A stretch of 63,853 nt of DNA from a virus (lineage: Duplodnaviria; Caudoviricetes). The first letter of the stretch is position 1; the number at the start of each line of letters is the position of its first letter. The DNA lies in the IMG/VR virus record IMGVR_UViG_3300036821_000178, positions 1 to 63,853 of that record. One strand, written 5' to 3'. Of the stretch, positions 35,038 to 63,853 are shown in pieces. A program made the position numbers and the translations under genes. The notes beneath the pieces are model-generated. The model was not told where the DNA came from. It did not search any database and saw nothing but the letters and a program-made list of their open reading frames with translations.

Positions 35038-35038
35038 T

Positions 35039-35122: not shown

Positions 35123-35126
35123 CAAT

Positions 35127-35212: not shown

Positions 35213-35217
35213 CTCAA

Positions 35218-35291
35218 TGGCCGCGACCCAGCTGGTCGACGGGGCCTGTCTGATGAACAGGTATCGCTCGGTTCGATTCCGAGGCGGCCAA
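35218..35291 (+). tRNA. tRNA-Ile(GAT)
   Basis: Cloverleaf; loop CT GAT GA. Confidence 0.7.
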
Positions 35292-35292
35292 C

Positions 35293-35372
35293 TGGCCGGT
35301 AGCTCAGTGGTAAGAGCGCCGAGCTTATATCTCGGGAATCAGTCGCGGGTTCAATCCCCGCCCGGCCGACCA
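35293..35372 (+). tRNA. tRNA-Ile(TAT)
   Basis: Cloverleaf; loop CT TAT AT; CCA end. Confidence 0.8.
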
Positions 35373-35373
35373 G

Positions 35374-35448
35374 CCCTCCGTAACTCAGTCTGGCCAGAGT
35401 ACCGTCCTTTTAAGTCGGGAGCCGAGCGTTCAAATCGCTCCGGGGGGA
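35374..35448 (+). tRNA. tRNA-Lys(TTT)
   Basis: Cloverleaf; loop CT TTT AA. Confidence 0.85.
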
Positions 35449-35456
35449 CTTTCTAA

Positions 35457-35528
35457 GCGTAGCTGGCGCAATGGAAGCGCGGCTCCCTTCTAAGGAGACG
35501 GTTCAGAGTTCAAGTCTCTGGCTACGCA
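35457..35528 (+). tRNA. tRNA-Arg(TCT)
   Basis: Cloverleaf; loop CT TCT AA. Confidence 0.85.
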
Positions 35529-35529
35529 C

Positions 35530-35600
35530 GGCCGCATCGTCTAGTGGCAGGACAGCTGATTCTCAGTCAGCGGGGCGGAGTTCAATTCTCCGTGCGGCTA
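35530..35600 (+). tRNA. tRNA-Glu(CTC)
   Basis: Cloverleaf; loop TT CTC AG. Confidence 0.85.
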
Positions 35601-35612
35601 CGTAAGTTACAT

Positions 35613-35684
35613 GGCCCCATCGTCTAATGGCTAGGATACTGCCCCTTCAAGGCGGGGGAGACGGGTCGGAACCGTCTGGGGCCA
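35613..35684 (+). tRNA. tRNA-Glu(TTC)
   Basis: Cloverleaf; loop CC TTC AA. Confidence 0.8.
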
Positions 35685-35685
35685 C

Positions 35686-35759
35686 TGCGGACAGCAGCAC
35701 CGGTTGTGCTGAGCGGCCTCATAAGCCGATGCAGCTGAGTTCGACTCTCAGGTCCGCAA
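35686..35759 (+). tRNA. tRNA-Met(CAT)
   Basis: Cloverleaf; loop CT CAT AA; Met versus Ile2 identity not resolved. Confidence 0.7.
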
Positions 35760-35768
35760 CGTTACCGA

Positions 35769-35839
35769 TCCGGCGTAGTTCAACGGCAGAACAGCGGGCT
35801 GTTAACCCGTAAATGTTGGTCCGATTCCAGCCGCCGGAG
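35769..35839 (+). tRNA. tRNA-Asn(GTT)
   Basis: Cloverleaf; loop CT GTT AA. Confidence 0.85.
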
Positions 35840-35892
35840 CTAAACTGGTAGTGCCACCCCCGGTCAGCCATTAACGCGACCGGGGAGAGTCC

Positions 35893-36321
35893 ATGCCGTA
35901 CGCAGACCTCGACCAGCAGCGTGCTTATCAGCGCGAGTGGGTCGCGAGACGCCGAGCCGAGTGGCTCGCCGCGAACGGGCCCTGCGTGGACTGCGGCTCG
36001 TGGAAGAATCTGCAACTAGACCATGTCGACAGTTCCGCCAAGGTTTCGCACAGAGTGTGGTCGTGGTCGCGCATGCGGCGAGAAGCGGAGCTCGCCAAGT
36101 GCGCCGTCAGATGCGGCCCGTGCCACAGCGCCAAGACAACGGCGCACCACGAGCGGCCCCACGGCGAACGCAACGGCCAGGCGCGCGTCACTGAACGGGA
36201 CGTGCGCGAAATACGAGACTCGGCGCACACCGAGCGCGCCCTCGCCAGGCAGTTCGGAATATCCAACTCGGCGGTCCATCGAATTCGGGCTCGCGAGACA
36301 TGGCGACACCTAGAGTTATAG
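35893..36321 (+). CDS. HNH endonuclease with C-terminal HTH
   Basis: CVDCGSWKNLQLDHVD...CAVRCGPCH; HGERNGQARVTE...LARQFGIS. Confidence 0.8.
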   Translation: MPYADLDQQRAYQREWVARRRAEWLAANGPCVDCGSWKNLQLDHVDSSAKVSHRVWSWSRMRREAELAKCAVRCGPCHSAKTTAHHERPHGERNGQARVTERDVREIRDSAHTERALARQFGISNSAVHRIRARETWRHLEL

Positions 36322-36326
36322 ATCAA

Positions 36327-36403
36327 GGTCCTGTAGGGGAGTTGGAGTCCCCGCCACCCTGTCAAGGTGGAGATCGCCGGTTCGAGTCCGGTCTGGGCCG
36401 CCA
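36327..36403 (+). tRNA. tRNA-Asp(GTC)
   Basis: Cloverleaf; loop CT GTC AA; CCA end. Confidence 0.9.
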
Positions 36404-36404
36404 T

Positions 36405-36476
36405 ACCCGCGTAGCTCAATGGCGGAGCACCTGGACGACAGCCAGGAGGTCGCAGGCTCGGTACCTGCCGCGGGTA
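36405..36476 (+). tRNA. tRNA-Val(GAC)
   Basis: Cloverleaf; loop AC GAC AG. Confidence 0.75.
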
Positions 36477-36481
36477 CGCAA

Positions 36482-36555
36482 GTCCCGGCGGTCCAGCGGA
36501 TAAGGACACCTGACTACGAATCAGGAGATCGCAGGTTCGAGCCCTGCCCGGGACG
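36482..36555 (+). tRNA. tRNA-Arg(ACG)
   Basis: Cloverleaf; loop CT ACG AA. Confidence 0.85.
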
Positions 36556-36564
36556 CTTTATCTA

Positions 36565-36636
36565 GCCCGCTTAGCTCAACGGGAGAGCACTGCCGTCACG
36601 AGGCAGGGGTCGGGGGGTCAGCACCTCCAGCGGGTA
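36565..36636 (+). tRNA. tRNA-Val(CAC)
   Basis: Cloverleaf; loop GT CAC GA. Confidence 0.75.
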
Positions 36637-36638
36637 CT

Positions 36639-36709
36639 GAGGGCGTAGCACAAAGGCAGTGCGTCCGGTTGTGAGCCGGGATATGCGGTTTCAAGATCCG
36701 TCGCCCTCC
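36639..36709 (+). tRNA. tRNA-His(GTG)
   Basis: Cloverleaf; loop TT GTG AG; C discriminator. Confidence 0.75.
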
Positions 36710-36711
36710 CC

Positions 36712-36794
36712 GCCAGGTTGGCTGAGTCAGGACGAAAGCGCCCGGCTGTAAACCGGGATCCACGGACACGGAGGTTCAAATCCTTCACCTGGCA
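36712..36794 (+). tRNA. tRNA-Tyr(GTA)
   Basis: Long variable arm; loop CT GTA AA. Confidence 0.85.
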
Positions 36795-36798
36795 CCTC

Positions 36799-36870
36799 GT
36801 CCCCGGCAGCGGATCTGCCGCGGAGATTCCGAATCTCGGCTGTCCAGTCCGACTCTGGACGGGGGCACCA
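36799..36870 (+). tRNA. tRNA-Arg(CCG)
   Basis: Loop TT CCG AA; reduced D arm; CCA end. Confidence 0.65.
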
Positions 36871-36871
36871 T

Positions 36872-36943
36872 GGCGCATGTCTCGCCGGCGCGGGAGGCGG
36901 CCTGCAAAGCCGTCGCAGCTCGGTTCGACCCCGAGATGCGCCT
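36872..36943 (+). tRNA. tRNA-Cys(GCA)
   Basis: Loop CT GCA AA; U discriminator. Confidence 0.75.
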
Positions 36944-36948
36944 CTGAA

Positions 36949-37024
36949 CGGCCTGTGGCGCAACGGATAGCGCAGCTGCTTCCTAAGCAGAGGGTTGCGG
37001 GTCCGACTCCCGCCAGGCCGGCCA
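36949..37024 (+). tRNA. tRNA-Arg(CCT)
   Basis: Cloverleaf; loop TT CCT AA; CCA end. Confidence 0.85.
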
Positions 37025-53570: not shown

Positions 53571-53942
53571 TCACCTGGAGCCGGGGACGGGGCGCAGGCC
53601 GGAGCAGGGCCGGGTGCGCTCGCGCATGGCGGCAACCATGGCCGCGCGCAGCCTGCGGGCCCGGTCGCTGAGCGCCTCGATGAGACGGCGGCGGCCGCGG
53701 CGTCGTCGTCGCAGTTCCAGCCAGAGCCATGCCATGAAGACCGCGATCAGGGCATCAAACGCAGCGCCGGGCCAGAAACACTCTGCGGCAAAGCCTGCCG
53801 AGCCGGCGATCCAGGCCAGGGACATGAGGCCGCAGTAGAACTCGACGGCGCGCTCCAGCCGGCGCGTGAGGCCCAGGAAGCTGCAGGCTATCGCGGCGAC
53901 CGCGAGCAGCGCCTGCAGCGCAAGAAACGCGAGATGGGTCAT
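53571..53942 (-). CDS. Membrane protein
   Basis: Three hydrophobic segments plus Arg-rich tail. Confidence 0.55.
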   Translation of the reverse strand: MTHLAFLALQALLAVAAIACSFLGLTRRLERAVEFYCGLMSLAWIAGSAGFAAECFWPGAAFDALIAVFMAWLWLELRRRRRGRRRLIEALSDRARRLRAAMVAAMRERTRPCSGLRPVPGSR

Positions 53943-54328
53943 GACCGGGCCCCCTGCGGGGCCGGGTGCAGGACAGGCCCGGGCCGGGGCCCGGGTGACG
54001 TCTCGCGCATGACGCGGACCAGGGCGACCCGGGCGGCGCGGCCGCGCTCGCTGAGCAGGGCGCGGACGCGGCGGCGCGAGGGACTGCGGGGCATCTTGCG
54101 CCACACGATGATGAAGGCGGCGGCGTAGACGGCGGCCATCGTCCACTGGGTCAGGATCACCGACAGGAGAAGGCCCGCGGCGAAGGACGCCAGGGCAGCG
54201 GCGTAGGCGCGCAGGACCCGCGTCAGCATGCGGGGCGAGGGAGGATGCAGCAGGGCCGGGAAGACGAGGGCCCAGGAGACGGCGGCGCCTGCCAGCAGCG
54301 GCAGGAGGCAGATGACCGGGGGGCTCAT
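53939..54328 (-). CDS. Membrane protein, similar architecture to 53571-53942
   Basis: Three hydrophobic segments plus Arg-rich tail; TAAACT 7 nt before ATG. Confidence 0.55.
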   Translation of the reverse strand: MSPPVICLLPLLAGAAVSWALVFPALLHPPSPRMLTRVLRAYAAALASFAAGLLLSVILTQWTMAAVYAAAFIIVWRKMPRSPSRRRVRALLSERGRAARVALVRVMRETSPGPRPGPVLHPAPQGARS

Positions 54329-54528
54329 GAGGGTGAGTTTAACCGCGGGCGCGAAGGAGGGAGGGCTTCGGGCGCGGGAAATGCTGCGTGAAAACTGGGA
54401 GGGGGTCGCTCAGGGTGATTCAGGCCGCTCGTGGCGCGCGCGAAAGTGGCGGGGTGCGCGCCCCGCACGCGCGCCGCGCGCGCACCCAGGTCGCACCTGG
54501 CCAGCGAGCTGGCGGTGCGTCTGGGCGT

Positions 54529-54567
54529 GCCTGACTACCGGTAACTCCCGATTACCGGTAGTCAGGC
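54529..54567. repeat. Perfect 16-bp inverted repeat
   Basis: GCCTGACTACCGGTAA-CTCCCGA-TTACCGGTAGTCAGGC. Confidence 0.8.
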
Positions 54568-55020
54568 CGGGCCCGCGCACAGGCCTGAGAGCAACGCTGC
54601 GGGCCCGTGCGTGCGGGCCCGCACGCGACCACCTGAACCGGTCCGTTCGGCGGCCAGCCGTGCTCACGCGCGCGTGCGCGGGGACATGGGGGAGATCTGG
54701 ACGCGCGTGCGCACCCGTCCCCGCATCCCCCCTCACCCCTGATTATTGTCACTCGATGACGATATCCCCTACCTCTCCTGACCAGCCGTAACCGTTTGCC
54801 CTGAACAATCTTGGTTCTACGTCTTGCACAGACGTCCGAACGCACGCTATCTTGGTGTCTGTCGGCAAGGGCGAGAGCCCGGAACCCCCGCCCTTCCCCC
54901 CTACAGGGGAAGGGTCACCGATGGGGCTAACTTCACAACAAGCGCGCTGAGGAGAGATCCCCTGCACTGTCACTACCTCGCAAGAGGCAAGCCAACTGGG
55001 GATGCCCGCAGAGAGGCCCG

Positions 55021-55371
55021 GGGATAGCATCGCCGGCGCAGAGACCATGCGGACTGAAGCGCGGACCCTTCCCCCTACGGGGACAGTGAATATGACCGGG
55101 GCGAACAGGCCCCGGATGCACTAGCGGGTAACTAATCTCCACACGCCTGGTGTGGCACTGCCGGACAATCTTCCGTGTACTCGGACAGTCGGCAAGCCCG
55201 GGGCTGAAGCCAGATCCGCTAGCGCATGGTCCGAGCACTACAGTCCGGCAACGGGCTAGGTTCTCGCGCGTTTGCTCCGCGAGACTCCGGCGTCACAGCA
55301 TGCGGACCGCATATCTCTCTCTCACTCTCACAAGAGTGAGGTACGGGGCTATCCCTTGCGGATGGCCCCGT
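55021..55371 (+). ncRNA. Candidate structured leader/ncRNA upstream of the array
   Basis: Nested complementary segments and several local hairpins; no convincing ORF. Confidence 0.35.
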
Positions 55372-55425
55372 GTCTCGCCCGGAGCGCACGTGCATGCCGC
55401 ACGCGCGCTGAGAGGAGAGACCCGG

Positions 55426-55719
55426 ATGCTTCCCTACATTGAGCGCGGCGAGGCTGGCATGGTCATTCTCGCCGAGGACGACAGCACGGGCACCTACTAC
55501 TGGTCAGAGCCCGTGAGCAGGCTTGACACGCACGCACCCGCGGGCGTGTCTCACGTGGTGCTGGCAGACGGCGGTGTCCTTGCCGGCTGGATAGCCGACA
55601 TGACACCTGTCCGCCCGGGCACGACCGCGCGCGCACTCAGCGCTGACGGTGCCGCTCTGCCTAGCCGGCACGGGGACTTTGAAGGTGCCATGACGGCTGT
55701 TATCGACAACCATTCCTGA
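55426..55719 (+). CDS. Array ORF 1, hypothetical
   Basis: GAGAGGAGAGA RBS then ATG. Confidence 0.7.
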   Translation: MLPYIERGEAGMVILAEDDSTGTYYWSEPVSRLDTHAPAGVSHVVLADGGVLAGWIADMTPVRPGTTARALSADGAALPSRHGDFEGAMTAVIDNHS

Positions 55720-55720
55720 T

Positions 55721-55780
55721 CCTGACCTGTTGCGGGGGAGATGTGCCTGACCGGGCGCGTCTCCCCCGTTGCATGCCAGG
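55721..55780 (+). repeat. Array hairpin R1 (class A variant, CCTG...CAGG ends)
   Basis: CCTGACCTGTTGC-[stem]-GTTGCATGCCAGG. Confidence 0.75.
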
Positions 55781-55808
55781 CAGCATGCACGCGAGAGGAG
55801 AGATCACG

Positions 55809-56033
55809 ATGGCCATCTTCCGCCCGGTTATCGCGGACAACGACACGCCGGCAGACATGACTGAGGACGCGGCGCAGATGTACGCGCGCTCACTTGCCCG
55901 TGCGCACAGGCAGGCAATGTCCGTACTTCAGCGCGGCGGGGACTACCTGATCCTTGCCGCGTCGTCGTTCACCGCCGGCGAGGCGCGGTACGCCGCTGAC
56001 GGCTGGCACCTGATCGGCACGCAGCAGGCCTAG
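55809..56033 (+). CDS. Array ORF 2, hypothetical
   Basis: Array RBS; TAG stop inside R2. Confidence 0.7.
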   Translation: MAIFRPVIADNDTPADMTEDAAQMYARSLARAHRQAMSVLQRGGDYLILAASSFTAGEARYAADGWHLIGTQQA

Positions 56034-56082
56034 ACACTGCCTGTGCTGCCCGGCACCGCCGGGCAGTGCGGAGTGTGCCTAG
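56030..56082 (+). repeat. Array hairpin R2 (class B)
   Basis: CTAGACACTGCCTGTG-[stem]-TGCGGAGTGTGCCTAG. Confidence 0.85.
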
Positions 56083-56112
56083 ACGGGTGCACGAGAGAGG
56101 AGAGAAACCCCG

Positions 56113-56433
56113 ATGGAATTGCATGGCACCTACACGGGCCCCAGCTACGGCACGATGGATTACCGCGACGGACTGGAGAGTTTCACCTCGCTCCGGCAGG
56201 CACAGGAACGTTTCTCCGAGCGCCTTCACACCTCCGGGGCGTGGCCGCTGGATGTCACTCGCGTGACGTTCAGCGATGACGGCTCCGCATGGACCGAAGA
56301 AGCGGAGTTCGTCTGCTTCCCCGCGACCACCTATGAGGATGTGCTGACGCTGTACGTTCCCGGTAATTACGACAACATCGCCTGGCAGATCACGGCCGGA
56401 CCGCACGGCGGGGTCAGGACAGAGCGAGGCTGA
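56113..56433 (+). CDS. Array ORF 3, hypothetical
   Basis: Array RBS. Confidence 0.7.
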   Translation: MELHGTYTGPSYGTMDYRDGLESFTSLRQAQERFSERLHTSGAWPLDVTRVTFSDDGSAWTEEAEFVCFPATTYEDVLTLYVPGNYDNIAWQITAGPHGGVRTERG

Positions 56434-56444
56434 GTGAACCGCAC

Positions 56445-56498
56445 CCAGCGCGTTGCGGGCGGCACGGGATCACTTCCGTGCCGCCCGCTGCCCGCTAG
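56445..56498 (+). repeat. Array hairpin R3 (class A)
   Basis: CCAGCGCGTTGC-[stem]-GCTGCCCGCTAG. Confidence 0.85.
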
Positions 56499-56519
56499 GG
56501 CAAGCGAGAGGAGAGAACG

Positions 56520-56744
56520 ATGGACGGTGTTATCACGCTGGTCAACGGTCACGGGACGTTCACTGCTCCCGCGATCACTGTTCAGCAGCGCCTTAACTGG
56601 TACGCAGGGTTCGGCGATGATGCCCCGCAGCGCGCACGGGCCGATTTTGCGCGCCGGCTGGGAGCGCCGGCGTTCGCCTACTGGGATGTGCCCGACACGC
56701 TTTCACTGTCGGTCATGCTCGTGCACGCGGAGCAGCATTCCTAG
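56520..56744 (+). CDS. Array ORF 4, hypothetical
   Basis: Array RBS; stop inside R4. Confidence 0.7.
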   Translation: MDGVITLVNGHGTFTAPAITVQQRLNWYAGFGDDAPQRARADFARRLGAPAFAYWDVPDTLSLSVMLVHAEQHS

Positions 56745-56793
56745 CGCGTTGCGGGGTGCACGAGACTGGCTCGTGCACCCCGTTGCCCGCTAG
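56741..56793 (+). repeat. Array hairpin R4 (class A)
   Basis: CTAGCGCGTTGC-[stem]-GTTGCCCGCTAG. Confidence 0.9.
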
Positions 56794-56852
56794 GGCAGTA
56801 AGGAACGGCCGCACGGGCGGCAGCTTGATCGCTTGGCATGAGAGGAGAGACA

Positions 56853-57149
56853 GTGAAGGTCAGGACGAACAACACCCCGCGCGACGTCATAGACGGAAGT
56901 CAGCTCACGCCGGCGGAGCGTGCGAAGTTTGACTATCTGGACTGGCCGGCTATCGAGGCCGGGACTGACAGCGCCTTGTTCTTCCGCTATCGCGGGACCG
57001 TGCATGACATGAGTGAGTTCATGCGCACGACAGGCGAGCTCGCAGACGCCGGCTGGCAGGGGTACAGCAGTGACTCCTACTCCTCCGCCACCGTCATCCG
57101 CATTACCGACGATGGCGAAGGAGTAGTTGTCGGCTATGCCACAACCTAG
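56853..57149 (+). CDS. Array ORF 5, hypothetical
   Basis: Array RBS, GTG start; stop inside R5. Confidence 0.7.
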   Translation: MKVRTNNTPRDVIDGSQLTPAERAKFDYLDWPAIEAGTDSALFFRYRGTVHDMSEFMRTTGELADAGWQGYSSDSYSSATVIRITDDGEGVVVGYATT

Positions 57150-57200
57150 CGCGTTGCGTGCGACCTGGGCGACATGTCCGGACCGCGCGCTGCCCGCTAG
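57146..57200 (+). repeat. Array hairpin R5 (class A)
   Basis: Class A arms. Confidence 0.9.
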
Positions 57201-57229
57201 GGCAGAGGTACCCGAGAGGAGAGATCACG

Positions 57230-57451
57230 ATGGACCCTGACGTTGCCCTGTCTAATGCTCGCGACGCCCTGACCCGCTACCGGTTCGCTCAGGATGCGCA
57301 GGAACGGGAAGAAGACCAGACGTCGCCGGCGTCCGATCAGCACCGGGTTAACGCCGAGGATGCGGCTTCCGATCTGGCCGGCGCATTCGAGGCGCTTGAC
57401 GGATGGATGTCCGGGCGGGGATTCGCGCCGGCCGCATGGCCGCGCCCGTAA
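57230..57451 (+). CDS. Array ORF 6, hypothetical
   Basis: Array RBS; MDPD...FEALDGWMSGRGFAPAAW. Confidence 0.7.
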   Translation: MDPDVALSNARDALTRYRFAQDAQEREEDQTSPASDQHRVNAEDAASDLAGAFEALDGWMSGRGFAPAAWPRP

Positions 57452-57455
57452 GTTC

Positions 57456-57505
57456 CTAGCGCGTTGCATGGCTACCGGCCAGCCGGTAACCGTGTTGCCC
57501 GCTAG
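57456..57505 (+). repeat. Array hairpin R6 (class A)
   Basis: Class A arms. Confidence 0.9.
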
Positions 57506-57528
57506 GGCAAACGAGAGGAGAGAACACG

Positions 57529-57843
57529 ATGGCACGAATCGTCGGCACATCCTTTGCTATCGTCGCGCTGGTCATTGCCGGCGCGTTCGCGTGGGCGGCG
57601 CTGACCGGCAGTCCGCCGGCCGTCTCCCGGGTGCCCGGGGGCATCGGGGCCGGGTGCATCGGCACGGGCTACTACCCCTCGCCCGTGCCGTGCACGGCCA
57701 GCCGGCTGCACTCGCTCATGGGGGCAATCGTGCACGGCCAGACCATCACGATTGACGGCCGGACCTACCGCGCAGCTCACTGCCAGCGCGAACGGGGACA
57801 TGCTCCCGGCCAGCGCTCGCACTGGCAGGTGATGTGCGGCTAG
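57529..57843 (+). CDS. Array ORF 7, putative membrane/secreted protein
   Basis: Array RBS; N-terminal hydrophobic segment, four Cys. Confidence 0.7.
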   Translation: MARIVGTSFAIVALVIAGAFAWAALTGSPPAVSRVPGGIGAGCIGTGYYPSPVPCTASRLHSLMGAIVHGQTITIDGRTYRAAHCQRERGHAPGQRSHWQVMCG

Positions 57844-57850
57844 ACCGCAG

Positions 57851-57918
57851 CTGGACACTGCCCGTGATCCCCAGGGAGCTCACTGTAGCTGGCCCCGGGG
57901 GTCGCGGAGTGTGCCCAG
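57851..57918 (+). repeat. Array hairpin R7 (class B, CTGG...CCAG ends)
   Basis: CTGGACACTGCCCGTG-[stem]-CGCGGAGTGTGCCCAG. Confidence 0.85.
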
Positions 57919-57946
57919 ACAGGCACGCGAGAGGAGAGAAGCAAAC

Positions 57947-58285
57947 ATGACCGATGCTCACTGGCACGCTTACAGCAATGTGGCGGGCTATCTGTCAGAG
58001 CAGGATGAGATTCCCGCGATGGACTGGGAAGACGCGCGCGGTTCGCTCGACCACGACATAGAGCGTGAGCGCGATTCGCTGGATTACGCCCCGGAAACAG
58101 ATTCCGATGAAGACGACCGGACTCAGGCGCTCTATAACTCGCTTACAGACGCGCTGACCGCCGTACGGAATGCGACCCCCGGTCAGGACTTCCTGGCCTA
58201 CACCGACGATGGCACGTCGCACACCATACCGACCGCGTGGCAGATCGTCTCGTGCACGGAAACCGACTGCCAGCCGGCAGAGTGA
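57947..58285 (+). CDS. Array ORF 8, acidic hypothetical
   Basis: Array RBS. Confidence 0.7.
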   Translation: MTDAHWHAYSNVAGYLSEQDEIPAMDWEDARGSLDHDIERERDSLDYAPETDSDEDDRTQALYNSLTDALTAVRNATPGQDFLAYTDDGTSHTIPTAWQIVSCTETDCQPAE

Positions 58286-58288
58286 GCG

Positions 58289-58339
58289 CTAGCGCGTTGC
58301 ATGACTCCCGGTCCCCCCGGGAGCCGTGCTGCCCGCTAG
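58289..58339 (+). repeat. Array hairpin R8 (class A)
   Basis: Class A arms. Confidence 0.9.
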
Positions 58340-58362
58340 GGCAGGCGAGAGGAGAGAAAACT

Positions 58363-58716
58363 ATGCAGTGCAAGCACGGCGATGGCGCGATTCACGACGA
58401 CGGCCATCGCCATGACGGTGCAAGCCCGTGCTACGTGCACTCCGCTACCGGAATGCACGTCTGCCACACGGAAGACGGCTACCTCAGCACTAATGCGGAA
58501 CCGCTGACCACTGAGGAGCAGGTCACCCGGGCGCGCCGGCTAGGCGCGGTTCACTACGGGGCCGGCGTCCATCTGGACATGCAAGACGAAGACTCCGCGC
58601 AGCTCATGGACGCGCTGAACGAAACCGGCCCGACCACTGAGGACAACCATCCGGCGCGCTACCGGATGTGCGAGGCATACGAGGATGGCCGGCAGGCAGC
58701 TGCCGGCGGGGCATGA
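58363..58716 (+). CDS. Array ORF 9, Cys/His-rich hypothetical
   Basis: Array RBS. Confidence 0.7.
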   Translation: MQCKHGDGAIHDDGHRHDGASPCYVHSATGMHVCHTEDGYLSTNAEPLTTEEQVTRARRLGAVHYGAGVHLDMQDEDSAQLMDALNETGPTTEDNHPARYRMCEAYEDGRQAAAGGA

Positions 58717-58730
58717 CTGACCCCCCTTGA

Positions 58731-58780
58731 CCTGACCTGTTGCGGGCGGCACGGGATTTACCCCCCGTGCCGCGCGCCGC
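58731..58780 (+). repeat. Array hairpin R9 (class A variant, right arm lost)
   Basis: CCTGACCTGTTGC left arm identical to R1; inner stem like R3; no right arm or RBS. Confidence 0.65.
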
Positions 58781-58952
58781 GCCGCGCGCTGGCCGCATGG
58801 TCACCAGCGCCGCCTGGCGCGGCGGGCACGGGCGCCACCGCGGGCACCGTAAGGCGCGGTAAGTTGCACGGCCCCGGGTGGCACCTGCATAACCTGATCG
58901 CCGCTCTTGTCCTTAGCTGGGCAGAGCGCGCACTGCGGAGGAGGTACCAGCA

Positions 58953-59006
58953 CTAGGCGCGTTGCGGCGCGCACGGGATCACCCGTGCGCGCCGTTGCCC
59001 GCCTAG
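58953..59006 (+). repeat. Array hairpin R10 (class A with extra G-C pair)
   Basis: CTAGGCGCGTTGC-[stem]-GTTGCCCGCCTAG. Confidence 0.9.
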
Positions 59007-59027
59007 GGCAGATGAGAGGAGAGATAC

Positions 59028-59447
59028 ATGAGCGAGATCACCGGCTACACGTTCAGCGCTGACCAGTACTGCCCCGACGACATGCGCCAGATGACGCTAG
59101 AGCGTCTCTGGACACTAGGCGAGCGACGTGCTGACAGGTTCGCGCCGGGTGCGGAAGATGTCCTAGATGAACTGGCACGCATCCTCGGCGTTAACCGCGC
59201 CGATGAATACTCATTCGACTCCGGTTACTTCCCGAAGGTCATATTCGGCAGCATGGCGCACGACGGATGCAGCACGGCCAGCGGGTACGACCCGGGCCAG
59301 TGCGGGGACGCATGCGGAGCATGCGGTTACCCGCTGGGCGGCCCATGCCCGAACGGATACGAGGGCCCGAACACCATTCCGGCCGGGACAGGTGACGCTG
59401 TCGCCCGCACTGCTCACTACGAGGAGCGCACGGCCGACCGGCGCTAG
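59028..59447 (+). CDS. Array ORF 11, hypothetical
   Basis: Array RBS; DEYSFDSGYFPKVIF, CGACG; stop inside R11. Confidence 0.7.
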   Translation: MSEITGYTFSADQYCPDDMRQMTLERLWTLGERRADRFAPGAEDVLDELARILGVNRADEYSFDSGYFPKVIFGSMAHDGCSTASGYDPGQCGDACGACGYPLGGPCPNGYEGPNTIPAGTGDAVARTAHYEERTADRR

Positions 59448-59496
59448 CGCGTTGCGTGCGGCGCGGGATCTTCCCGCGCGGCGCGTTGCCCGCTAG
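59444..59496 (+). repeat. Array hairpin R11 (class A)
   Basis: Class A arms. Confidence 0.9.
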
Positions 59497-59522
59497 GGCA
59501 CGAGAGAGGAGAGACTGTAACC

Positions 59523-59903
59523 ATGAGTGACAGCCTTAACGACATCATGGAATTTGACCACGTGATACAGGTCAGCCCCGATGGCACCGTCAGTGACGGG
59601 CCGGCGGGCATCTACGCCCCGGAATCGGTGATCGATACCGACGATGACGGTCAGATCGGGCTGCCCGACGAGACGGAATGGCAGGAATCCCTTAGCCGGC
59701 AGGGCTGGGAAGTCCTGACGGGCTACTCCGGTCAGGATCGCTACCCGGGTCCGATCATGCACGCCTCCGAGTCCATCGGCGGCGCGCTGGCCGGCCACAT
59801 CCGGGCGACCCCCGGGCTGTGGGTCGCGGTGTCCGTCGAGACGCTAGACGATTCCGGAGAGGCGACCGGCTGGGCGGTATGCCACCGTGACCTGCCGGAA
59901 TGA
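59523..59903 (+). CDS. Array ORF 12, hypothetical
   Basis: Array RBS; LTGYSGQDRYPGPIMHASESIGG. Confidence 0.7.
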   Translation: MSDSLNDIMEFDHVIQVSPDGTVSDGPAGIYAPESVIDTDDDGQIGLPDETEWQESLSRQGWEVLTGYSGQDRYPGPIMHASESIGGALAGHIRATPGLWVAVSVETLDDSGEATGWAVCHRDLPE

Positions 59904-59909
59904 CAAGCG

Positions 59910-59964
59910 CTAGCGCGTTGCGTGCGGCCTGGACGACACATCCGGGGCGCGCGTTGCCCGCTAG
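59910..59964 (+). repeat. Array hairpin R12 (class A)
   Basis: Class A arms. Confidence 0.9.
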
Positions 59965-59991
59965 GGCACCTAACCGAGAGGAGAGATCACG

Positions 59992-60360
59992 ATGGACTCA
60001 CCAATAGAGACACGTCATGTGGAATCCGGCGGTCTGGGCTTCACTATCTCGCTCTACCGGGATCCGGACGTGGATATCACCGATTCCGACGCCTATTCGG
60101 AAGCCGACATCGCTGCATGGAAGCGTGATGAATGGACTTTCGTAACGGTGGAGGTCCGTTCGGACGTCGGCGGGATCTATGACGACCTCGGCGCGTGCGC
60201 GTTCGGGACCGGCGACGGATGGACCGTCAGTATGGACAGGATGGTTACCGAGTATCCCGTGCCCGACATGCTGAGCGCGGTCAAGCGCAAGATGCGGCGC
60301 GACCTGCCCGCCATGCGCGCCGAGATCGACGCTGCCATAGCCGCAACCAAGAGCGCCTAG
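59992..60360 (+). CDS. Array ORF 13, paralog of ORF 16
   Basis: Array RBS; DIAAWKRDEWTFV, EYPVPD; stop inside R13. Confidence 0.75.
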   Translation: MDSPIETRHVESGGLGFTISLYRDPDVDITDSDAYSEADIAAWKRDEWTFVTVEVRSDVGGIYDDLGACAFGTGDGWTVSMDRMVTEYPVPDMLSAVKRKMRRDLPAMRAEIDAAIAATKSA

Positions 60361-60410
60361 CGCGTTGCGTGATCCCCGGGCGCAAGCCCGGGGGTGGCGC
60401 TGCCCGCTAG
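60357..60410 (+). repeat. Array hairpin R13 (class A)
   Basis: Class A arms. Confidence 0.9.
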
Positions 60411-60432
60411 GGCAATGAGAGGAGAGATCACG

Positions 60433-60855
60433 ATGGCGCAGTTCAGGACCGGCGACGAAATCGCGGTCGACGACCCGAAGTACCCCGGCGTGTGGATTGT
60501 CCGGAAGGTCAACCCGACCACGTACGCGGCCGACCCGAAGGAAGGCGGGCGCGGGCTGAAGCTGCCGCACGCCATGGCGCTGCCGGCCAGCGAGGCCCGG
60601 GAGGCGGGCCCCGTGGGCATCGCGGCACCCGAGCGCCCGGAAGGACTCCGCACGGGCGCGCTCGTGCGCATCAAGCCGGGCCGCGTGCGCGGGATCAGTG
60701 ACCCCGCCGCGCTGTTCGTGGTGTTCGCGGACAAGTACGACACGGTGAACGTGACCATGCTCGGAGGCGACCCGGGCCGGCGCTACTGGCGCTTGCCGCC
60801 CAGCTGTATTACCGAGGTGATTGACCCGGCCCGGGTGACCGTGGCCGCGTCCTAG
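60433..60855 (+). CDS. Array ORF 14, possible tandem SH3-like barrels
   Basis: Array RBS; FRTGDEI and LRTGALV repeats; stop inside R14. Confidence 0.65.
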   Translation: MAQFRTGDEIAVDDPKYPGVWIVRKVNPTTYAADPKEGGRGLKLPHAMALPASEAREAGPVGIAAPERPEGLRTGALVRIKPGRVRGISDPAALFVVFADKYDTVNVTMLGGDPGRRYWRLPPSCITEVIDPARVTVAAS

Positions 60856-60901
60856 CGCGTTGCATGGCCCCTAGGCGACCGGGGACCGTGTTGCCCGCTA
60901 G
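60852..60901 (+). repeat. Array hairpin R14 (class A)
   Basis: Class A arms. Confidence 0.9.
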
Positions 60902-60927
60902 GGCAGAGGTACTAAGAGAGGAGAGAT

Positions 60928-61122
60928 ATGGAATACGTGGGATTCACGGTGTCCTTTTCGCTCGACAACGCCGAGGCGGAGGAGATGGGCACGGACATGG
61001 CCGTTCCCGCTTACCTCCGGCAAGTCGCTGACAAGGCGGAGGACGGTCAGACATCCGGCACTGTCCGCGACGGCAACGGCGTGACCATCGGCAGTTTCGA
61101 GGTCACCCGCACGCCGGCCTAG
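60928..61122 (+). CDS. Array ORF 15, hypothetical
   Basis: Array RBS; LRQVADK...GTVRDGNGVTIG; stop inside R15. Confidence 0.7.
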   Translation: MEYVGFTVSFSLDNAEAEEMGTDMAVPAYLRQVADKAEDGQTSGTVRDGNGVTIGSFEVTRTPA

Positions 61123-61171
61123 GCGCGTTGCGTGGTCCCCGGTTCACCCGGGGCCCGCGTTGCCCGCCTAG
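61119..61171 (+). repeat. Array hairpin R15 (class A with extra G-C pair)
   Basis: CTAGGCGCGTTGC-[stem]-GTTGCCCGCCTAG. Confidence 0.9.
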
Positions 61172-61199
61172 GGCAGATCGGAACGAGAGGAGAGGCAGA

Positions 61200-61604
61200 A
61201 TGAGCAGGCCATTTGAGACCCGTCATATCGAGGACAAGGGGCTTGGCTTCACGGTGGAGCTGTGGCCAGACGAGGACTCGACGACCGACGACGCCGAGTG
61301 CTACTCGCCCTCGGACATCGCGGCATGGCAGCGTGACGAGTGGTCGTTTATCGGCGTCGTCGTGCGCTCCGACACCGGGGACTTGCAAGAGTCCCTGTGG
61401 TCAGTCGAGTACGGCTCCTGTCCGGCCGAGACAGAGCCGTTCCAGGGCGGCATGCACGAGGCGTGGACCGTCGATACGGACAAGATCGTTTCCGAGTACC
61501 CAGTGCCGGACCTGCTGTCCGAACTGCGCTCACGCATGCACAAGGAACTTCCGGCGCTGCGCGAGCAGGTCAACGCGGCCATAGCCGCGACCGAGAGAGA
61601 CTAA
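61200..61604 (+). CDS. Array ORF 16, paralog of ORF 13
   Basis: Array RBS; DIAAWQRDEWSFI, EYPVPD. Confidence 0.75.
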   Translation: MSRPFETRHIEDKGLGFTVELWPDEDSTTDDAECYSPSDIAAWQRDEWSFIGVVVRSDTGDLQESLWSVEYGSCPAETEPFQGGMHEAWTVDTDKIVSEYPVPDLLSELRSRMHKELPALREQVNAAIAATERD

Positions 61605-61608
61605 GGGG

Positions 61609-61664
61609 CTAGACACTGCCCGTGTCACCCGGGGCGATTCCCGGATGGCGCGGAGTGTGCCTAG
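61609..61664 (+). repeat. Array hairpin R16 (class B)
   Basis: Class B arms. Confidence 0.9.
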
Positions 61665-61698
61665 ATCGCACACTGGCGAGAGGAGAGGTAAGAGACGC

Positions 61699-61947
61699 AT
61701 GGACATTTACACCGCCCTGTGCGACCCGATCGACGGGCACAGCCAGAAAACGGACCTGGTAGGGGTTTTCAGCACCGAGCCCAAGGCGCGCGACGCATGC
61801 CAGGTCCACGCCGACGAGGACGGAGACACCGGCCCGGACGACCCGGGCCGGCTGGTCCTGCAATGGAACGAGGACAGCGCCGAGGGGCGCGACGGCCGCA
61901 AGTACGTCGTGATTCTGGGCGACCTTGACCGGCGAACGGGCACCTAA
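61699..61947 (+). CDS. Array ORF 17, hypothetical
   Basis: Array RBS; LVGVFSTEPKA; TAA stop inside R17. Confidence 0.7.
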   Translation: MDIYTALCDPIDGHSQKTDLVGVFSTEPKARDACQVHADEDGDTGPDDPGRLVLQWNEDSAEGRDGRKYVVILGDLDRRTGT

Positions 61948-61997
61948 CGCACAGCGTGACCCCCGGGCAGGTGCCCGGGGGCTGCGCTGCCCGCTAG
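61944..61997 (+). repeat. Array hairpin R17 (class A, degenerate left arm)
   Basis: CTAACGCACAGC-[stem]-GCTGCCCGCTAG. Confidence 0.8.
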
Positions 61998-62018
61998 GGC
62001 AGACGAGAGGAGAGATGG

Positions 62019-62669
62019 ATGCTGTCAGAGATGATGGAAGTCCGCGACGCTACCCGGGCGTGGCAGCACGCGGCCGGCCGGCAGCGGGCGGACGCGGCTA
62101 GCGAGCTGGCCCTGCGCGCTGAGGAGCTGATGCAGGCCCTCGCATGGTGGGGCGTGGACACACCCGAGGCGCGCGCCCTGAAAGGCGCGCTGGGCGTGTA
62201 CCAGGCCGATCCGGAGACGTGGTATCGCAGTCCCGATGCCCCCGGCTCGCGCGCGGTCACAGATGCCATCGTGACCGCGTTCGATGCGTTCGCCCGGAGC
62301 GCCCACGGCCGCCAGGCCGAGGCCGGCGACCGGGATCCCGTAAGGGCCATGCCGGCCGAGGCCGGGCGCTGGGTATCGGAGGCGGCGTTCGGAGTGCCGG
62401 CCAACTGCGGCCAGATGGTGCTGCTGGCCTGCGCCCGCGGGTGGGTCAATCCCGCCGCGCTGGCACTGGCCGGGCGTGCCGTGGGCACGGGCCCGGCGCT
62501 GACCGAGGACGAGTCGTGCGCGCTGTGCGAGAAGTACGCGATCGAGGCTGAGTACTGGCTCAATGGGCACTGCGCCCCGCCCGGCTACCTGTTCGGGTGG
62601 AAAGATCTTTCGTTCTACTTCGAGAGCGCGGAATGGTGGGCCGAGCACGACGGGCCCGACCAGCTTTAG
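62019..62669 (+). CDS. Array ORF 18, hypothetical
   Basis: Array RBS; 216 aa. Confidence 0.7.
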   Translation: MLSEMMEVRDATRAWQHAAGRQRADAASELALRAEELMQALAWWGVDTPEARALKGALGVYQADPETWYRSPDAPGSRAVTDAIVTAFDAFARSAHGRQAEAGDRDPVRAMPAEAGRWVSEAAFGVPANCGQMVLLACARGWVNPAALALAGRAVGTGPALTEDESCALCEKYAIEAEYWLNGHCAPPGYLFGWKDLSFYFESAEWWAEHDGPDQL

Positions 62670-62728
62670 CTAGACACTGCCCGTGGCCACCCGGCGATGG
62701 ATGCCGGGTGACTGCGGAGTGTGCCTAG
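62670..62728 (+). repeat. Array hairpin R18 (class B)
   Basis: Class B arms. Confidence 0.9.
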
Positions 62729-62763
62729 ACCCCTAGGAACACTGACGAGAGGAGAGACGGGCT

Positions 62764-63033
62764 ATGCCGAAATACGACGTGGAAGTCAGCCACACAATCA
62801 CGGTCACGGTGCCGGTTCAGGCGGATTCGCCGGCAAAGGCGCACGAGACCGTAAGCCGGCGCGATTTCCCGCTGCCCCCGCGCGATCAGTGGACGGGCGG
62901 CAAAGACTGGTCTTATGTCGTATATGGCGAGGACGGCACCAAGCTGGGCGGCGACGACGGCGACGGAAGCGGCTACGGGTCCTGTGAGGACCTCCCCAGC
63001 GAGCACGAGTACGGCTGGTATGAGGAGAACTAG
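62764..63033 (+). CDS. Array ORF 19, hypothetical
   Basis: Array RBS; YDVEVSHTITVTVPVQADS..KA. Confidence 0.7.
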   Translation: MPKYDVEVSHTITVTVPVQADSPAKAHETVSRRDFPLPPRDQWTGGKDWSYVVYGEDGTKLGGDDGDGSGYGSCEDLPSEHEYGWYEEN

Positions 63034-63040
63034 ACCGGAC

Positions 63041-63093
63041 CTAGCGCGTTGCGGGGTGCGCGAGCATGTCTCGCGCACCCCGTTGCCCGCTAG
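63041..63093 (+). repeat. Array hairpin R19 (class A)
   Basis: Class A arms; inner stem related to R4. Confidence 0.9.
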
Positions 63094-63118
63094 GGGCAGC
63101 GCGAGAGGAGAAACGACC

Positions 63119-63376
63119 ATGAGGACTGCCGCCCAGAACAGCGTGAATCGCGCGGCGAAGTTCCATCCGGAAACGACTGACGACGAGCGGCCGGCTATCG
63201 AGGTTGCCGGCGTGCTGGTGTTCACCTACGTGAACGAGGATGGAATCCTGTGCGTCTCAGTCGATCTGGATACACCGGACCGTGACGTGTTCCCCGCCGA
63301 ATGCGTGCCACTGCGCGTGACGGTACAGGGTAATACGGTGTTCGCGGCCGACCAGGACGGCACCACCTGTAGCTAG
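63119..63376 (+). CDS. Array ORF 20, hypothetical
   Basis: Array RBS; stop inside R20. Confidence 0.7.
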   Translation: MRTAAQNSVNRAAKFHPETTDDERPAIEVAGVLVFTYVNEDGILCVSVDLDTPDRDVFPAECVPLRVTVQGNTVFAADQDGTTCS

Positions 63377-63426
63377 ACACTGCCCGTGGCGCGCGGGGAA
63401 ACCCGCGCGTTGCGGAGTGTGCCTAG
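63373..63426 (+). repeat. Array hairpin R20 (class B)
   Basis: Class B arms. Confidence 0.9.
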
Positions 63427-63457
63427 AACGGCACGCGAGAGAGGAGAGATGAGGGGA

Positions 63458-63853
63458 ATGGAACGATTCCGGCTAGTGGTCAAGGTCAGCCCGGATGACC
63501 CGGGCAGTGCGGCGCAAGAGGCGAAAGATCTCCTGTACGCGCCGGGCGCGCCCACCAGCAAGAGCGTTGCGGCCACGGTCGCATACCTCGCCACGCTGGA
63601 CGGCGGCGCGTCTGCGGGCTCACACGTCTATACCACGCTGCCCGTGTTTCTGGGCGAGCTGTGGGAGCGTGCAGGTAACTACCTGCTCACGTGGCGCGGG
63701 CCCGCTATCAAGCTGTACGAGATCCACGCCGACGAGCCTGCCGAAAAGGTTCTGTGTGGAGCACACGCGGGCGTTCACGACGAGAGGCCGGATTGCGCCT
63801 GGCCCCATTTCTTCCACGGACAGGGCCCGATGCCCGTTGTCGGTCACCCGCTT
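63458..63853 (+). CDS. Array ORF 21, hypothetical, runs off window end
   Basis: Array RBS; frame open from MERFRLVVKV to the end. Confidence 0.65.
   Translation, partial: MERFRLVVKVSPDDPGSAAQEAKDLLYAPGAPTSKSVAATVAYLATLDGGASAGSHVYTTLPVFLGELWERAGNYLLTWRGPAIKLYEIHADEPAEKVLCGAHAGVHDERPDCAWPHFFHGQGPMPVVGHPL

Follow-up and report, generated by a model that had tools for sequence, protein, structure and literature searches.

Two related families of covarying hairpin elements punctuate a small-gene array in a tailed-phage genome record

From position 55410 to its end, the virus record IMGVR_UViG_3300036821_000178 (Duplodnaviria; Caudoviricetes) carries an array of 20 co-oriented open reading frames (ORFs; 64-216 aa), and the 19 spacers between them contain 20 hairpin elements. 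The window analysed here is the whole of this IMG/VR record, which has a length of 63,853 bp and a G+C content of 69%, is classed as linear and has an estimated completeness of about 66%. The elements form two related families, class A and class B, which are previously undescribed in the literature searched and in Rfam. Strong covariation in the alignments of both families supports the view that the hairpin would be the functional form, and with moderate confidence we propose that the elements act at the RNA level, in translation-linked intercistronic processing, stabilisation or coupling.

Covariance models were built for class A (R1, 10 copies) and class B (R2, five copies). An initial annotation made from the letters of this DNA had counted 15 class A elements, variants included, and five class B elements, and the models recover the same 20, consisting of 13 class A copies (51-78 bits), two degenerate class A-like copies (23-26 bits) and five class B copies (71-79 bits). 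On the plus strand of the rest of the window, nothing is found at E<0.1 except low-scoring cross-matches of each model on the other class. The class A 3' arm together with the tail GGGCA has 12 matches in the window at up to two mismatches versus 1.02 expected, a count reached by 0 of 100 shuffles, and all 10 exact copies of the arm lie in the array on the plus strand. The class A 5' arm is present in the array as nine exact copies and one copy with a single mismatch, its matches elsewhere being at chance level, and five of the six matches to the class B 3' arm (0.96 expected) are in the array as well. A comparison with Rfam, which the initial annotation had proposed as a check, gives no family for the elements: the 24 gathering-level matches in the window are all of tRNA type and all outside the array, and a permissive scan of positions 54000-63853 yields three matches, each below half its gathering score.

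Class A folds into one long imperfect hairpin followed by the conserved tail GGGCA. A conserved C.C mismatch separates its basal stem of six base pairs (CUAGCG/CGCUAG) from a G-C and a U.G pair; above these, the predicted folds show a second conserved mismatch, U.U, and then a variable upper stem of about 14 pairs that ends in a loop of 3-7 nt. In the alignment of 10 copies, 94.5% of the cells pair and nine of 22 pairs are altered on both sides; none of 500 shuffles reaches the observed percentage of pairing or the covariation score, and only 28-48% of the cells pair when the partner is slid by one to three columns. The upper stems in the window fall into subfamilies. In class B, a foot of four base pairs (CUAG/CUAG) is followed by small bulges, and the hairpin is conserved in its middle and variable at its top; 97.4% of the cells of its alignment pair, seven of 23 pairs are altered on both sides, and again 0 of 500 shuffles reach the observed values. 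Of the 18 canonical copies, 17 have a predicted helix of 20-23 pairs and one has a helix of 27 pairs.

Compensated changes extend to the basal stems. Across phages, CTAGCG/CGCTAG of class A becomes CTGGTG/CACCAG in a Kribbella contig, and a paired basal insertion occurs in two window copies and in one copy of the record G002. The class B foot varies as CTGG/CCAG, CCGG/CCGG, TTAG/CTAA and CTG/CAG, and a G.U pair is replaced by U-A in the contig L129.

All 20 copies lie on the coding strand; when the minus strand of these loci is scored, the models give 19-37 bits. The sense fold is the more stable one in 14 of the 20 copies (mean -36.8 versus -34.1 kcal/mol; Wilcoxon p = 0.017). Each sense fold contains one to five G.U pairs (two to five among the 18 canonical copies); on the opposite strand these would be A.C mismatches. 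The asymmetry between sense and antisense folds is real but modest.

In both classes, the 3' basal arm is predicted to pair alternatively with conserved sequence just downstream, forming a small hairpin, H2, which is mutually exclusive with the basal stem. In class A, H2 consists of UGCCC, a loop and GGGCA, and in class B of GUGUGCC with a GGCACAC-like partner. When the downstream segment is shuffled, the mean energy of the class A structure changes from -9.6 to -4.9 kcal/mol, and z is below -1 in 19 of 19 copies; the corresponding values for class B are -9.4 and -5.8 kcal/mol, with z below -1 in 17 of 21 copies. The class B H2 is made from different sequences in different copies, and Streptomyces phage TurkishDelight compensates it (GUGUG/CACAC to GGGUG/CACCC).

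The layout of the junctions is equally regular. A fixed ribosome-binding site (RBS), GAGAGGAGA, occurs 24 times in the window versus 0.57 times expected, a number reached by 0 of 100 shuffles. Twenty of these copies are inside the array, all on the plus strand, and each is followed 1-12 nt downstream by the start codon of an ORF of 64-216 aa, in agreement with the fixed RBS and start codon that had been described after the elements. The 19 spacers measure 74-314 nt and a strong hairpin is predicted in every one. All 19 stop codons lie between -25 and +1 nt from the hairpin foot, 18 of them within -14 to +1, and in nine cases the stop is the TAG (or TAA) of the foot itself. CTAG has a density of 5.21 per kb in the array and of 0.81 per kb elsewhere, a 6.4-fold difference, and 33 of the 44 CTAGs of the array are inside elements. 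No sigma70-like promoter is found in 53800-63853 versus 1.1 expected, which bears out the initial impression that no promoter separates the units, and the three U-tract terminator-like sites of the same interval are at chance level (3.4 expected), none of them at an element. The features of the array and of its upstream flank are as follows, RBS positions being given with the ORF to which they belong (pI, isoelectric point).

54939-54962 (+): weaker RBS-like copy, direct repeat D1, 79% identical to the ORF1 RBS region
55260-55425 (+): structured leader upstream of ORF1 (166 nt), its CU-rich tract pairing with the first RBS in the minimum free energy fold
55426..55719 (+): ORF1, 97 aa; RBS 55410; pI 4.56; no Pfam match
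55722..55782 (+): degenerate class A-like hairpin; R1 25.9 bits; fold -41.7 kcal/mol
55809..56033 (+): ORF2, 74 aa; RBS 55793; stop TAG in the foot of the next element
56030..56083 (+): class B hairpin; R2 70.9 bits
56113..56433 (+): ORF3, 106 aa; RBS 56095
56445..56502 (+): class A hairpin, 5' foot CCAG; R1 73.3 bits
56520..56744 (+): ORF4, 74 aa; RBS 56506; stop in foot
56741..56797 (+): class A hairpin; R1 77.0 bits
56853..57149 (+): ORF5, 98 aa, GTG start; RBS 56840; stop in foot
57146..57204 (+): class A hairpin; R1 69.1 bits
57230..57451 (+): ORF6, 73 aa; RBS 57214
57456..57509 (+): class A hairpin; R1 72.3 bits
57529..57843 (+): ORF7, 104 aa; RBS 57513; basic (pI 9.9), hydrophobic N-terminus
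57851..57919 (+): class B hairpin, compensated foot CTGG/CCAG; R2 70.9 bits; pair 3/66 changed from A-U to G-C
57947..58285 (+): ORF8, 112 aa; RBS 57929; pI 4.05
58289..58343 (+): class A hairpin; R1 70.1 bits
58363..58716 (+): ORF9, 117 aa; RBS 58347
58739..58780 (+): degenerate class A-like hairpin, first of two in spacer 9; R1 23.1 bits, model positions 8-46 only
58953..59010 (+): class A hairpin, paired G/C insertion in the basal stem (CTAGGCG/CGCCTAG); R1 60.8 bits
59028..59447 (+): ORF10, 139 aa; RBS 59014; stop in foot; phrog_7422 (unknown function)
59444..59500 (+): class A hairpin; R1 77.8 bits
59523..59903 (+): ORF11, 126 aa; RBS 59504
59910..59968 (+): class A hairpin; R1 72.3 bits
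59992..60360 (+): ORF12, 122 aa; RBS 59976; phrog_5644; stop in foot; paralogue of ORF15
60357..60414 (+): class A hairpin; R1 74.2 bits
60433..60855 (+): ORF13, 140 aa; RBS 60417; basic (pI 9.2); stop in foot
60852..60905 (+): class A hairpin; R1 66.5 bits
60928..61122 (+): ORF14, 64 aa; RBS 60916; stop in foot
61119..61175 (+): class A hairpin, paired G/C insertion in the basal stem; R1 58.3 bits
61200..61604 (+): ORF15, 134 aa; RBS 61185; phrog_5644
61609..61665 (+): class B hairpin; R2 78.9 bits
61699..61947 (+): ORF16, 82 aa; RBS 61678; TAA stop replaces the TAG of the foot
61944..62001 (+): class A hairpin, degenerate 5' arm; R1 51.3 bits
62019..62669 (+): ORF17, 216 aa; RBS 62005
62670..62729 (+): class B hairpin; R2 71.5 bits; H2 from a different sequence, z = -3.16
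62764..63033 (+): ORF18, 89 aa; RBS 62747; sub-threshold DpnD/PcfM match (20 bits, cut-off 25)
63041..63098 (+): class A hairpin, 3' tail GGGGCA; R1 74.6 bits
63119..63376 (+): ORF19, 85 aa; RBS 63103; stop in foot
63373..63427 (+): class B hairpin; R2 78.1 bits
63458..63853 (+): ORF20, cut by the record end (start 63458 or 63449); RBS 63439

The alternation of ORFs and elements, which had been called strict, is nearly but not perfectly so, since the 20 elements occupy 19 spacers and spacer 9 (58714-59027, 314 nt) carries two of them, about 170 nt apart and without a convincing ORF in between. The upper stem of the degenerate element at 58739..58780 resembles that of the copy at 56445. The interval 58780-58953 contains a GGAGGAGG motif; it may be the remnant of a lost gene, resembling the tandem hairpins of a Kribbella locus described below.

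Elements that score with the models occur well beyond the window. A search with covariance models of both classes had been suggested from the start; two-arm patterns together with the models lead to other actinophage contigs and to Kribbella genomes. A megablast comparison of the array with 50,697 phage records gave no match. Two-arm patterns beyond chance expectation were found in viral contigs, for class A in one and for class B in four, and a relaxed class B pattern detected 13 contigs, R2 confirming six of the nine new loci. The other three (L153, L156 and L159) were dropped, as were the results of a relaxed class A pattern (11 contigs, 10 of them new), none of which was confirmed and which we ascribe to chance; on all 19 new loci of the two relaxed scans, R1 gave no match at E <= 0.001. 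Scans of viral contigs with single-arm 14-mers and 16-mers produced one scattered match per locus in the 82 loci listed and were likewise treated as chance. In metagenomes, class A was met in one contig, L149, with a weak R1 match of 30 bits and without ORF context.

Three further records carry both classes, namely G001 (a complete provirus of 56 kb), G002 and G003, and class A is present in two Kribbella genomes, on a 17.8 kb contig in one case and at one site within a 1.4 Mb contig in the other. With 150 candidates scored per genome of 9-9.7 Mb, the Kribbella genomes contain one and two copies of class A and none of class B, and with so few copies the elements are not a chromosome-wide repeat. 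An exact two-arm copy of class B was absent from the genomes of 185,579 species (one genome each). TurkishDelight possesses two class-B-like copies of about 40 bits. In the right arm of this phage (L131, 74.5-89.5 kb), each gene is followed by a hairpin, some hairpins are triplicated nearly identically, and several spacers contain a conserved TTGAC-type promoter-like motif.

The element-bearing contigs belong to at least five lineages that are hardly alike, and nonetheless their arms are identical over 12 + 13 nt. None of the 20 array proteins is matched by tblastn (E <= 1e-3) in the records of eight relatives, and the only proteins common to the window and some element-bearing lineages are the terminase, the portal, a MuF-like protein and one further protein, which is probably structural as it stands beside the portal and MuF genes of the relatives. 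The terminase of the window is 69% identical to that of G003 and about 27% identical to those of G002 and G004. No regulator common to all element-bearing lineages was found. The retention of the arms in phages without common array genes points to recognition by a common factor and suggests that the punctuation may outlast the genes of the arrays.

Outside the window, 21 of 25 model-confirmed elements, a set that includes the near-duplicates L152 and L155, are preceded by an ORF of 50 codons or more whose end falls between -13 and +3 of the foot. The stop is inside the foot in 11 of these 21 cases, and the foot variants CTGA and TTAG still hold a stop codon. A Shine-Dalgarno-like motif and a start codon lie 19-45 nt downstream of 23 of the 25 elements. 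The RBS strings vary by phage, being GAAGGGAGCA in the Kribbella array and looser in L129, while the hairpins recur; the fixed RBS thus seems to be a habit of each phage and the hairpins the shared part. The Kribbella arrays L143 and L150-L151 use further hairpin families with conserved feet, one of which starts at the TAG stop with TAGTCGAG and ends in GCGACTCGGCAGCA while another starts with TGAGTGAGCATCG, so that several punctuation classes coexist per phage. On the minus strand of L135, adjacent class B copies at 260-316 and 609-665 surround one small ORF and differ only by compensated upper-stem changes, which suggests that the pair arose by local duplication of the element.

Two Kribbella loci permit an insight into gene gain and loss. 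They are 82% identical over 10.4 kb upstream and only patchily alike within the array, where the gene order is collinear (a1-a4 corresponding to b1-b4 and a6-a7 to b5-b6). Gene a5 is present in one locus only, the slot of a8 is occupied by an unrelated gene, b7, in the other locus, and a9 and a10 are additional genes. The a5 indel starts just 3' of the hairpin of a4 and ends 9 nt ahead of the stop codon of a5, this second edge falling inside the end of the ORF. The locus without a5 retains both hairpins in tandem; in this single case, genes therefore come and go around the hairpins and are not excised as an ORF with one hairpin. Gene a5 carries the window-type RBS and not the local one. In an orthologous class A element of the two loci, the arms are identical and the top, which differs by substitutions and indels, still pairs; in another orthologous spacer a class A variant has been replaced by an unrelated hairpin.

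The proposal that the elements act at the RNA level draws on several of these properties at once, namely the covarying and strand-specific hairpin, the alternative basal fold, the placement of stops and RBSs, the conservation across phages, and the lack of a promoter, U-tract or recombinase. The array would be one long, probably polycistronic block of small accessory genes whose junctions are punctuated by sense-strand RNA hairpins, each junction consisting of a stop at or near the foot, a helix of 20-23 bp with mismatched conserved bases and a variable top, the conserved tail, a purine-only RBS and the next start. The helix would be recognised by a conserved host factor. This factor is probably RNase III, a double-strand-specific enzyme, by analogy with phage T7, and our confidence in this assignment is lower than in the RNA-level role itself. 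Of the two functions initially put forward for the hairpins, processing sites and recombination sites, the former fits a strand-specific covarying hairpin between stop and RBS with a mismatched helix of this length, and it is retained here as a model.

In T7, the polycistronic early RNA contains five RNase III signals, and the excerpt cited gives 22 bp for the idealised substrate and relates mismatches at the target site to single-strand cleavage and stabilising 3' hairpins (PMC3867540). The helix length of the window elements, together with the conserved C.C and U.U mismatches of class A and the bulges of class B, fits this description of an RNase III signal. As far as the excerpt goes, the T7 signals are, like the window elements, hairpins of about two turns with internal mismatches between cistrons of a long polycistronic phage mRNA; they differ in that there is no sequence similarity, that the RNase III would be that of an actinobacterial host, and that 20 sites in 8.4 kb, which are known from predicted folds, are compared with five in about 7 kb. 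Mismatches might limit cutting, so that each upstream cistron would retain a protective 3' hairpin as at the T7 early junctions.

Translation could enter through the stop codons. As the stop sits at the foot, a ribosome terminating within about 14 nt of it should open the conserved basal stem and favour H2, into which the freed 3' arm and the tail would refold. Processing, initiation at the next RBS, or both would thereby depend on translation of the preceding gene. A comparable arrangement is known from genes VII and IX of phage f1, where, according to the section cited, coupling requires the upstream stop to be at or within a hairpin that ends just upstream of the next gene (PMC12548453). 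The f1 case resembles the window in its long hairpin and in the position of the stop, and it differs in consisting of one junction with overlapping genes, compared with 19 junctions and spacers of 74-314 nt. In its strongest form the model would make every junction a ribosome-gated two-state RNA switch that decides on nuclease cutting and on initiation of the next cistron, and at the same time a portable expression socket for captured ORFs; this version is tentative, and we regard it as rather unlikely to hold in full. The repeated punctuation would hand a newly acquired ORF ready expression signals, with short homologies for gene gain and loss as a by-product.

Several points weigh against an RNA-level role or against parts of it. 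Transcripts, their ends and their cleavage are all deduced from sequence and folds. The energy gap between sense and antisense is modest, six of the 20 copies folding as well or better in antisense, and the same hairpins could form in single-stranded top-strand DNA. The argument for RNase III would be one of helix geometry. The hairpin is not predicted to sequester the RBS, which leaves the benefit of a ribosome-driven opening unclear, and stops in the foot (20 of 40 overall) are only modestly above the one in three expected from reading frame. The H2 stem of class A is invariant, so that covariation cannot confirm it, and four of 21 class B copies are without H2. Finally, the conserved arms could reflect horizontal spread of the elements.

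Instead of processing sites, the elements might be transcription attenuators, i.e., weak factor-independent or translation-sensitive terminators without U-tracts that create a gradient of expression and are relieved by upstream translation or by a phage antiterminator. GC-rich hairpins of -27 to -48 kcal/mol directly after stop codons would suit this function, and terminators lacking U-tracts have reportedly been found in the early region of phiC31. Terminating ribosomes are known to block the formation of terminator hairpins, as stated in the section cited (PMC12548453). However, no element has a U-tract, the terminator-like sites of the region are those expected by chance and avoid the elements, and a series of nineteen terminators, were they anything but very weak, would shut off the distal genes, with no promoters found that could restart transcription. 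Simple termination would also leave the conserved mismatches and the sequence-specific arms shared across phages unexplained, and we consider attenuation unlikely.

We hold an equally low opinion of the idea that the elements exist for repeat-mediated shuffling, in which arms and RBS would provide short homologies for general recombination inserting, deleting or exchanging ORFs. Repeats of this kind are known as PeSLs (promoter early stem-loops) from T4-type phages, where, in the part of the account cited, regulatory modules recur on either side of small orphan genes in hyperplastic regions and go along with the gain and loss of genes (PMC2839356). The window shares these traits; in contrast, PeSLs are described there with strong sigma70-like promoters and effective terminators, whereas the window has no promoter-like sites and no U-tracts at its elements. 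Shuffling would explain why the arms are common to phages sharing none of the 20 array genes and why the Kribbella loci differ by whole-gene indels and replacements within a collinear array, with one indel edge just 3' of a hairpin and an extra gene that bears the window-type RBS; the annotation of TurkishDelight lists a RecT-like protein and an exonuclease. Yet exchange by repeat homology needs neither a covarying stem nor strand specificity nor conserved mismatches, and, as the tops vary, only about 12-16 nt of homology would be usable. Also, with both hairpins retained in the absence of a5 and the other edge inside the ORF end, that indel looks illegitimate rather than repeat-to-repeat. DNA contigs that possibly derive from the source sample display no variants of the array and no joined or circular forms, as far as contigs can tell; two apparent joints, whose 21-nt sides lie on the repeated 3' arm and RBS, were regarded as repeat artefacts. 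Shuffling of this kind can coexist with an RNA role.

It is improbable that the elements are selfish miniature mobile elements, or double-stranded DNA operators for a phage regulator, without any role in RNA. Near-identical arms in very distant phages, upper-stem subfamilies that suggest duplication within the window, and the CTAG palindromes that frame the elements and are enriched in the array speak for this view. Recent mobility, however, predicts near-identical whole copies, and the tops differ and are compensated; the orthologous Kribbella copy retains its arms while its top drifts. Operators were suggested for the extended start-associated sequences (ESAS) of cluster K mycobacteriophages, in which a conserved RBS-containing motif (start-associated sequence, SAS) stands ahead of start codons and frequently has an inverted repeat directly upstream of it, and the authors, in the excerpt cited, saw little support for ESAS as mRNA hairpins (PMC3203893). 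In this respect ESAS are unlike the window elements with their strong covariation, and operators need no covarying stems of 20 bp, such compensation being absent from ESAS in the same excerpt; nor does any regulator run through all lineages. According to a paper from 2025, the role of the cluster K repeats still needs experimental verification. The 13-nt SAS consensus has two matches at up to two mismatches in the window versus 2.52 expected, both on the minus strand.

In integron attC arrays, every promoterless ORF has behind it an imperfect hairpin whose ends are conserved and whose centre varies, and the inverse core and core sites of attC read RYYYAAC and GTTRRRY. The window array resembles them in these promoterless, co-oriented ORFs and hairpins, in conserved unpaired bases and in strand-specific structure, and the initial annotation had offered recombination sites for gene capture as one reading. 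That no recombinase is recognisable, as it had also remarked, still holds: no integrase, resolvase or transposase, including Y1/HUH transposases and RAYT (REP-associated tyrosine transposase) domains, is among the 24 Pfam families matched by 71 ORFs outside the array of this record, which is about 66% complete, and no domain was found in the 10 ORFs adjoining the array. In the alignments inspected, the attC core-site consensus is matched by no arm of the two classes, whichever strand is read, the class A 3' arm being GTTGCCC. A function as attC-like or as IS200- or REP (repetitive extragenic palindrome)-like hairpin sites for a dedicated recombinase that captures ORF cassettes is thus highly improbable, the more so as gene loss leaves both hairpins in Kribbella, the proteins that relatives have in common with the window are confined to those of packaging and the head, and the elements are tied to stops and RBSs in every lineage, with a fixed RBS per unit in the window. 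Unlike host REP/RAYT-like repeats, which are many and dispersed, they amount to only one or two copies among the 150 candidates scored in each Kribbella genome.

An analogue does exist for the design. The cluster M repeats CR3 and CR4 were reportedly described by Pope et al. in 2014 (J Virol 88:2461). In the portion of a genome note cited here, conserved repeats stand between many right-arm genes of cluster M phages, stem-loops are located upstream of CR3 and CR4, and gene insertions bring their own CR3 copy (PMC7953290). We folded 12 right-arm spacers of the cluster M phage Estes (MT657341), which measure 80-115 nt and consist of a hairpin with a conserved lower stem and a variable upper stem, a fixed RBS repeat and the start codon; the preceding stop codon is at or in the hairpin foot, in several cases in it. 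Cluster M thus resembles the window in its RBS repeat before the starts of co-oriented small right-arm genes with a stem-loop upstream (12 spacers compared with 19), and in being rich in tRNA genes, 21 being given for Estes in the cited portion and 31 being found in the window. In sequence the two differ: R1 and R2 have no match in the Estes right arm (L136) at E <= 1, and the Estes RBS repeat has one match in the window versus 0.25 expected, located outside the array. The initial statement that no analogue has these sequences therefore stands, and what has to be given up is the novelty of the design, which is already known in cluster M.

The array might start slightly earlier than ORF1, at the RBS-like copy at 54939-54962. 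The leader in front of ORF1, folded together with the start codon (55260-55430), has z = -4.96, and 0 of 200 shuffles fold as well. Similar CTCTCT-rich leaders precede Kribbella arrays, at about 6900-6960 in L133 and about 6440-6500 in L145. Class A-like arms on the minus strand of 55117-55259 form no significant structure (z = -0.25). The four GAGAGGAGA sites outside the array (25451, 30727, 39495 and 40701) are each 3' of a hairpin, none of class A or B, and at 40701 the RBS is overlapped by the hairpin 3' arm. At the other end, the record stops at 63853 inside ORF20 and sequence past this point is unreadable. An 11.7 kb contig from the same sample (depth 12.8 versus 9.4 for the contig of the window) matches the window only at 3' arm/RBS positions, of which there are three (window 56488-56522, 59975-59995 and 63084-63111); it probably represents either the rest of the array, which the record lacks, or a relative that occurs alongside.

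Most of the array proteins, 18 of 20, are small, acidic (pI 4.05-5.75) orphans. None of the 20 reaches the Pfam cut-off, the DpnD/PcfM match of ORF18 being the sole sub-threshold one. A scan against PHROGs covered ORFs 10-13 and 15-20, i.e., all except ORFs 1-9 and 14, and four of these 10 proteins match families of unknown function. ORF12 and ORF15 are 47% identical, and a search of 5.8 billion proteins returned two homologues of ORF15 apart from the protein itself. Protein atlas look-alikes of ORF17 and ORF10 are uncharacterised viral proteins only.

Genes for a large terminase, a portal and a MuF-like head protein lie on the minus strand of the window, which belongs to a soil actinophage. 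The nearest cultured phages by terminase are TurkishDelight (53% identity) and Actinoplanes phage phiAsp2, and no Mycobacterium phage is among the ten commonest organism names in the tally of terminase matches. A cluster of 31 tRNA genes detected by ARAGORN (32219-37024, about 5 kb) covers all 20 amino acids; Rfam adds a tRNA-Sec-like call at 35126-35212 (49.5 bits, gathering score 47) without ARAGORN counterpart. A DpdA-type transglycosylase (Pfam E = 2.2e-63) is encoded in the window, where ORF 25544-26449 (minus strand) matches the PHROG 'queuine tRNA-ribosyltransferase', and together with a PAPS-reductase-like domain among the ORFs outside the array it suggests that the phage DNA may carry a 7-deazaguanine modification. 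A batch scan of these ORFs also found NADAR, NUDIX, AbiEii, S24 peptidase, STAS and intein/Hint domains.

Arrays of small orphan genes at the ends of phage genomes are thought to hold much accessory and counter-defence function, and their expression is poorly understood. Repeats of this kind are said to have been recognised over ten years ago in mycobacteriophages of clusters M and K. What is new here are two defined element families with strong covariation, the persistence of these elements across lineages that have no array genes and barely any structural genes in common, and the combination of a stop in the foot with a competing small hairpin, which leads to a concrete, testable model linking translation to processing. 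If this model is true, the elements would offer compact insulating junctions for multi-gene constructs in GC-rich actinomycetes. If the junctions really are switches, they would represent an RNA-level counterpart of the integron cassette with a wide distribution in soil actinophages, and the repeats of cluster M would perhaps be the same device.

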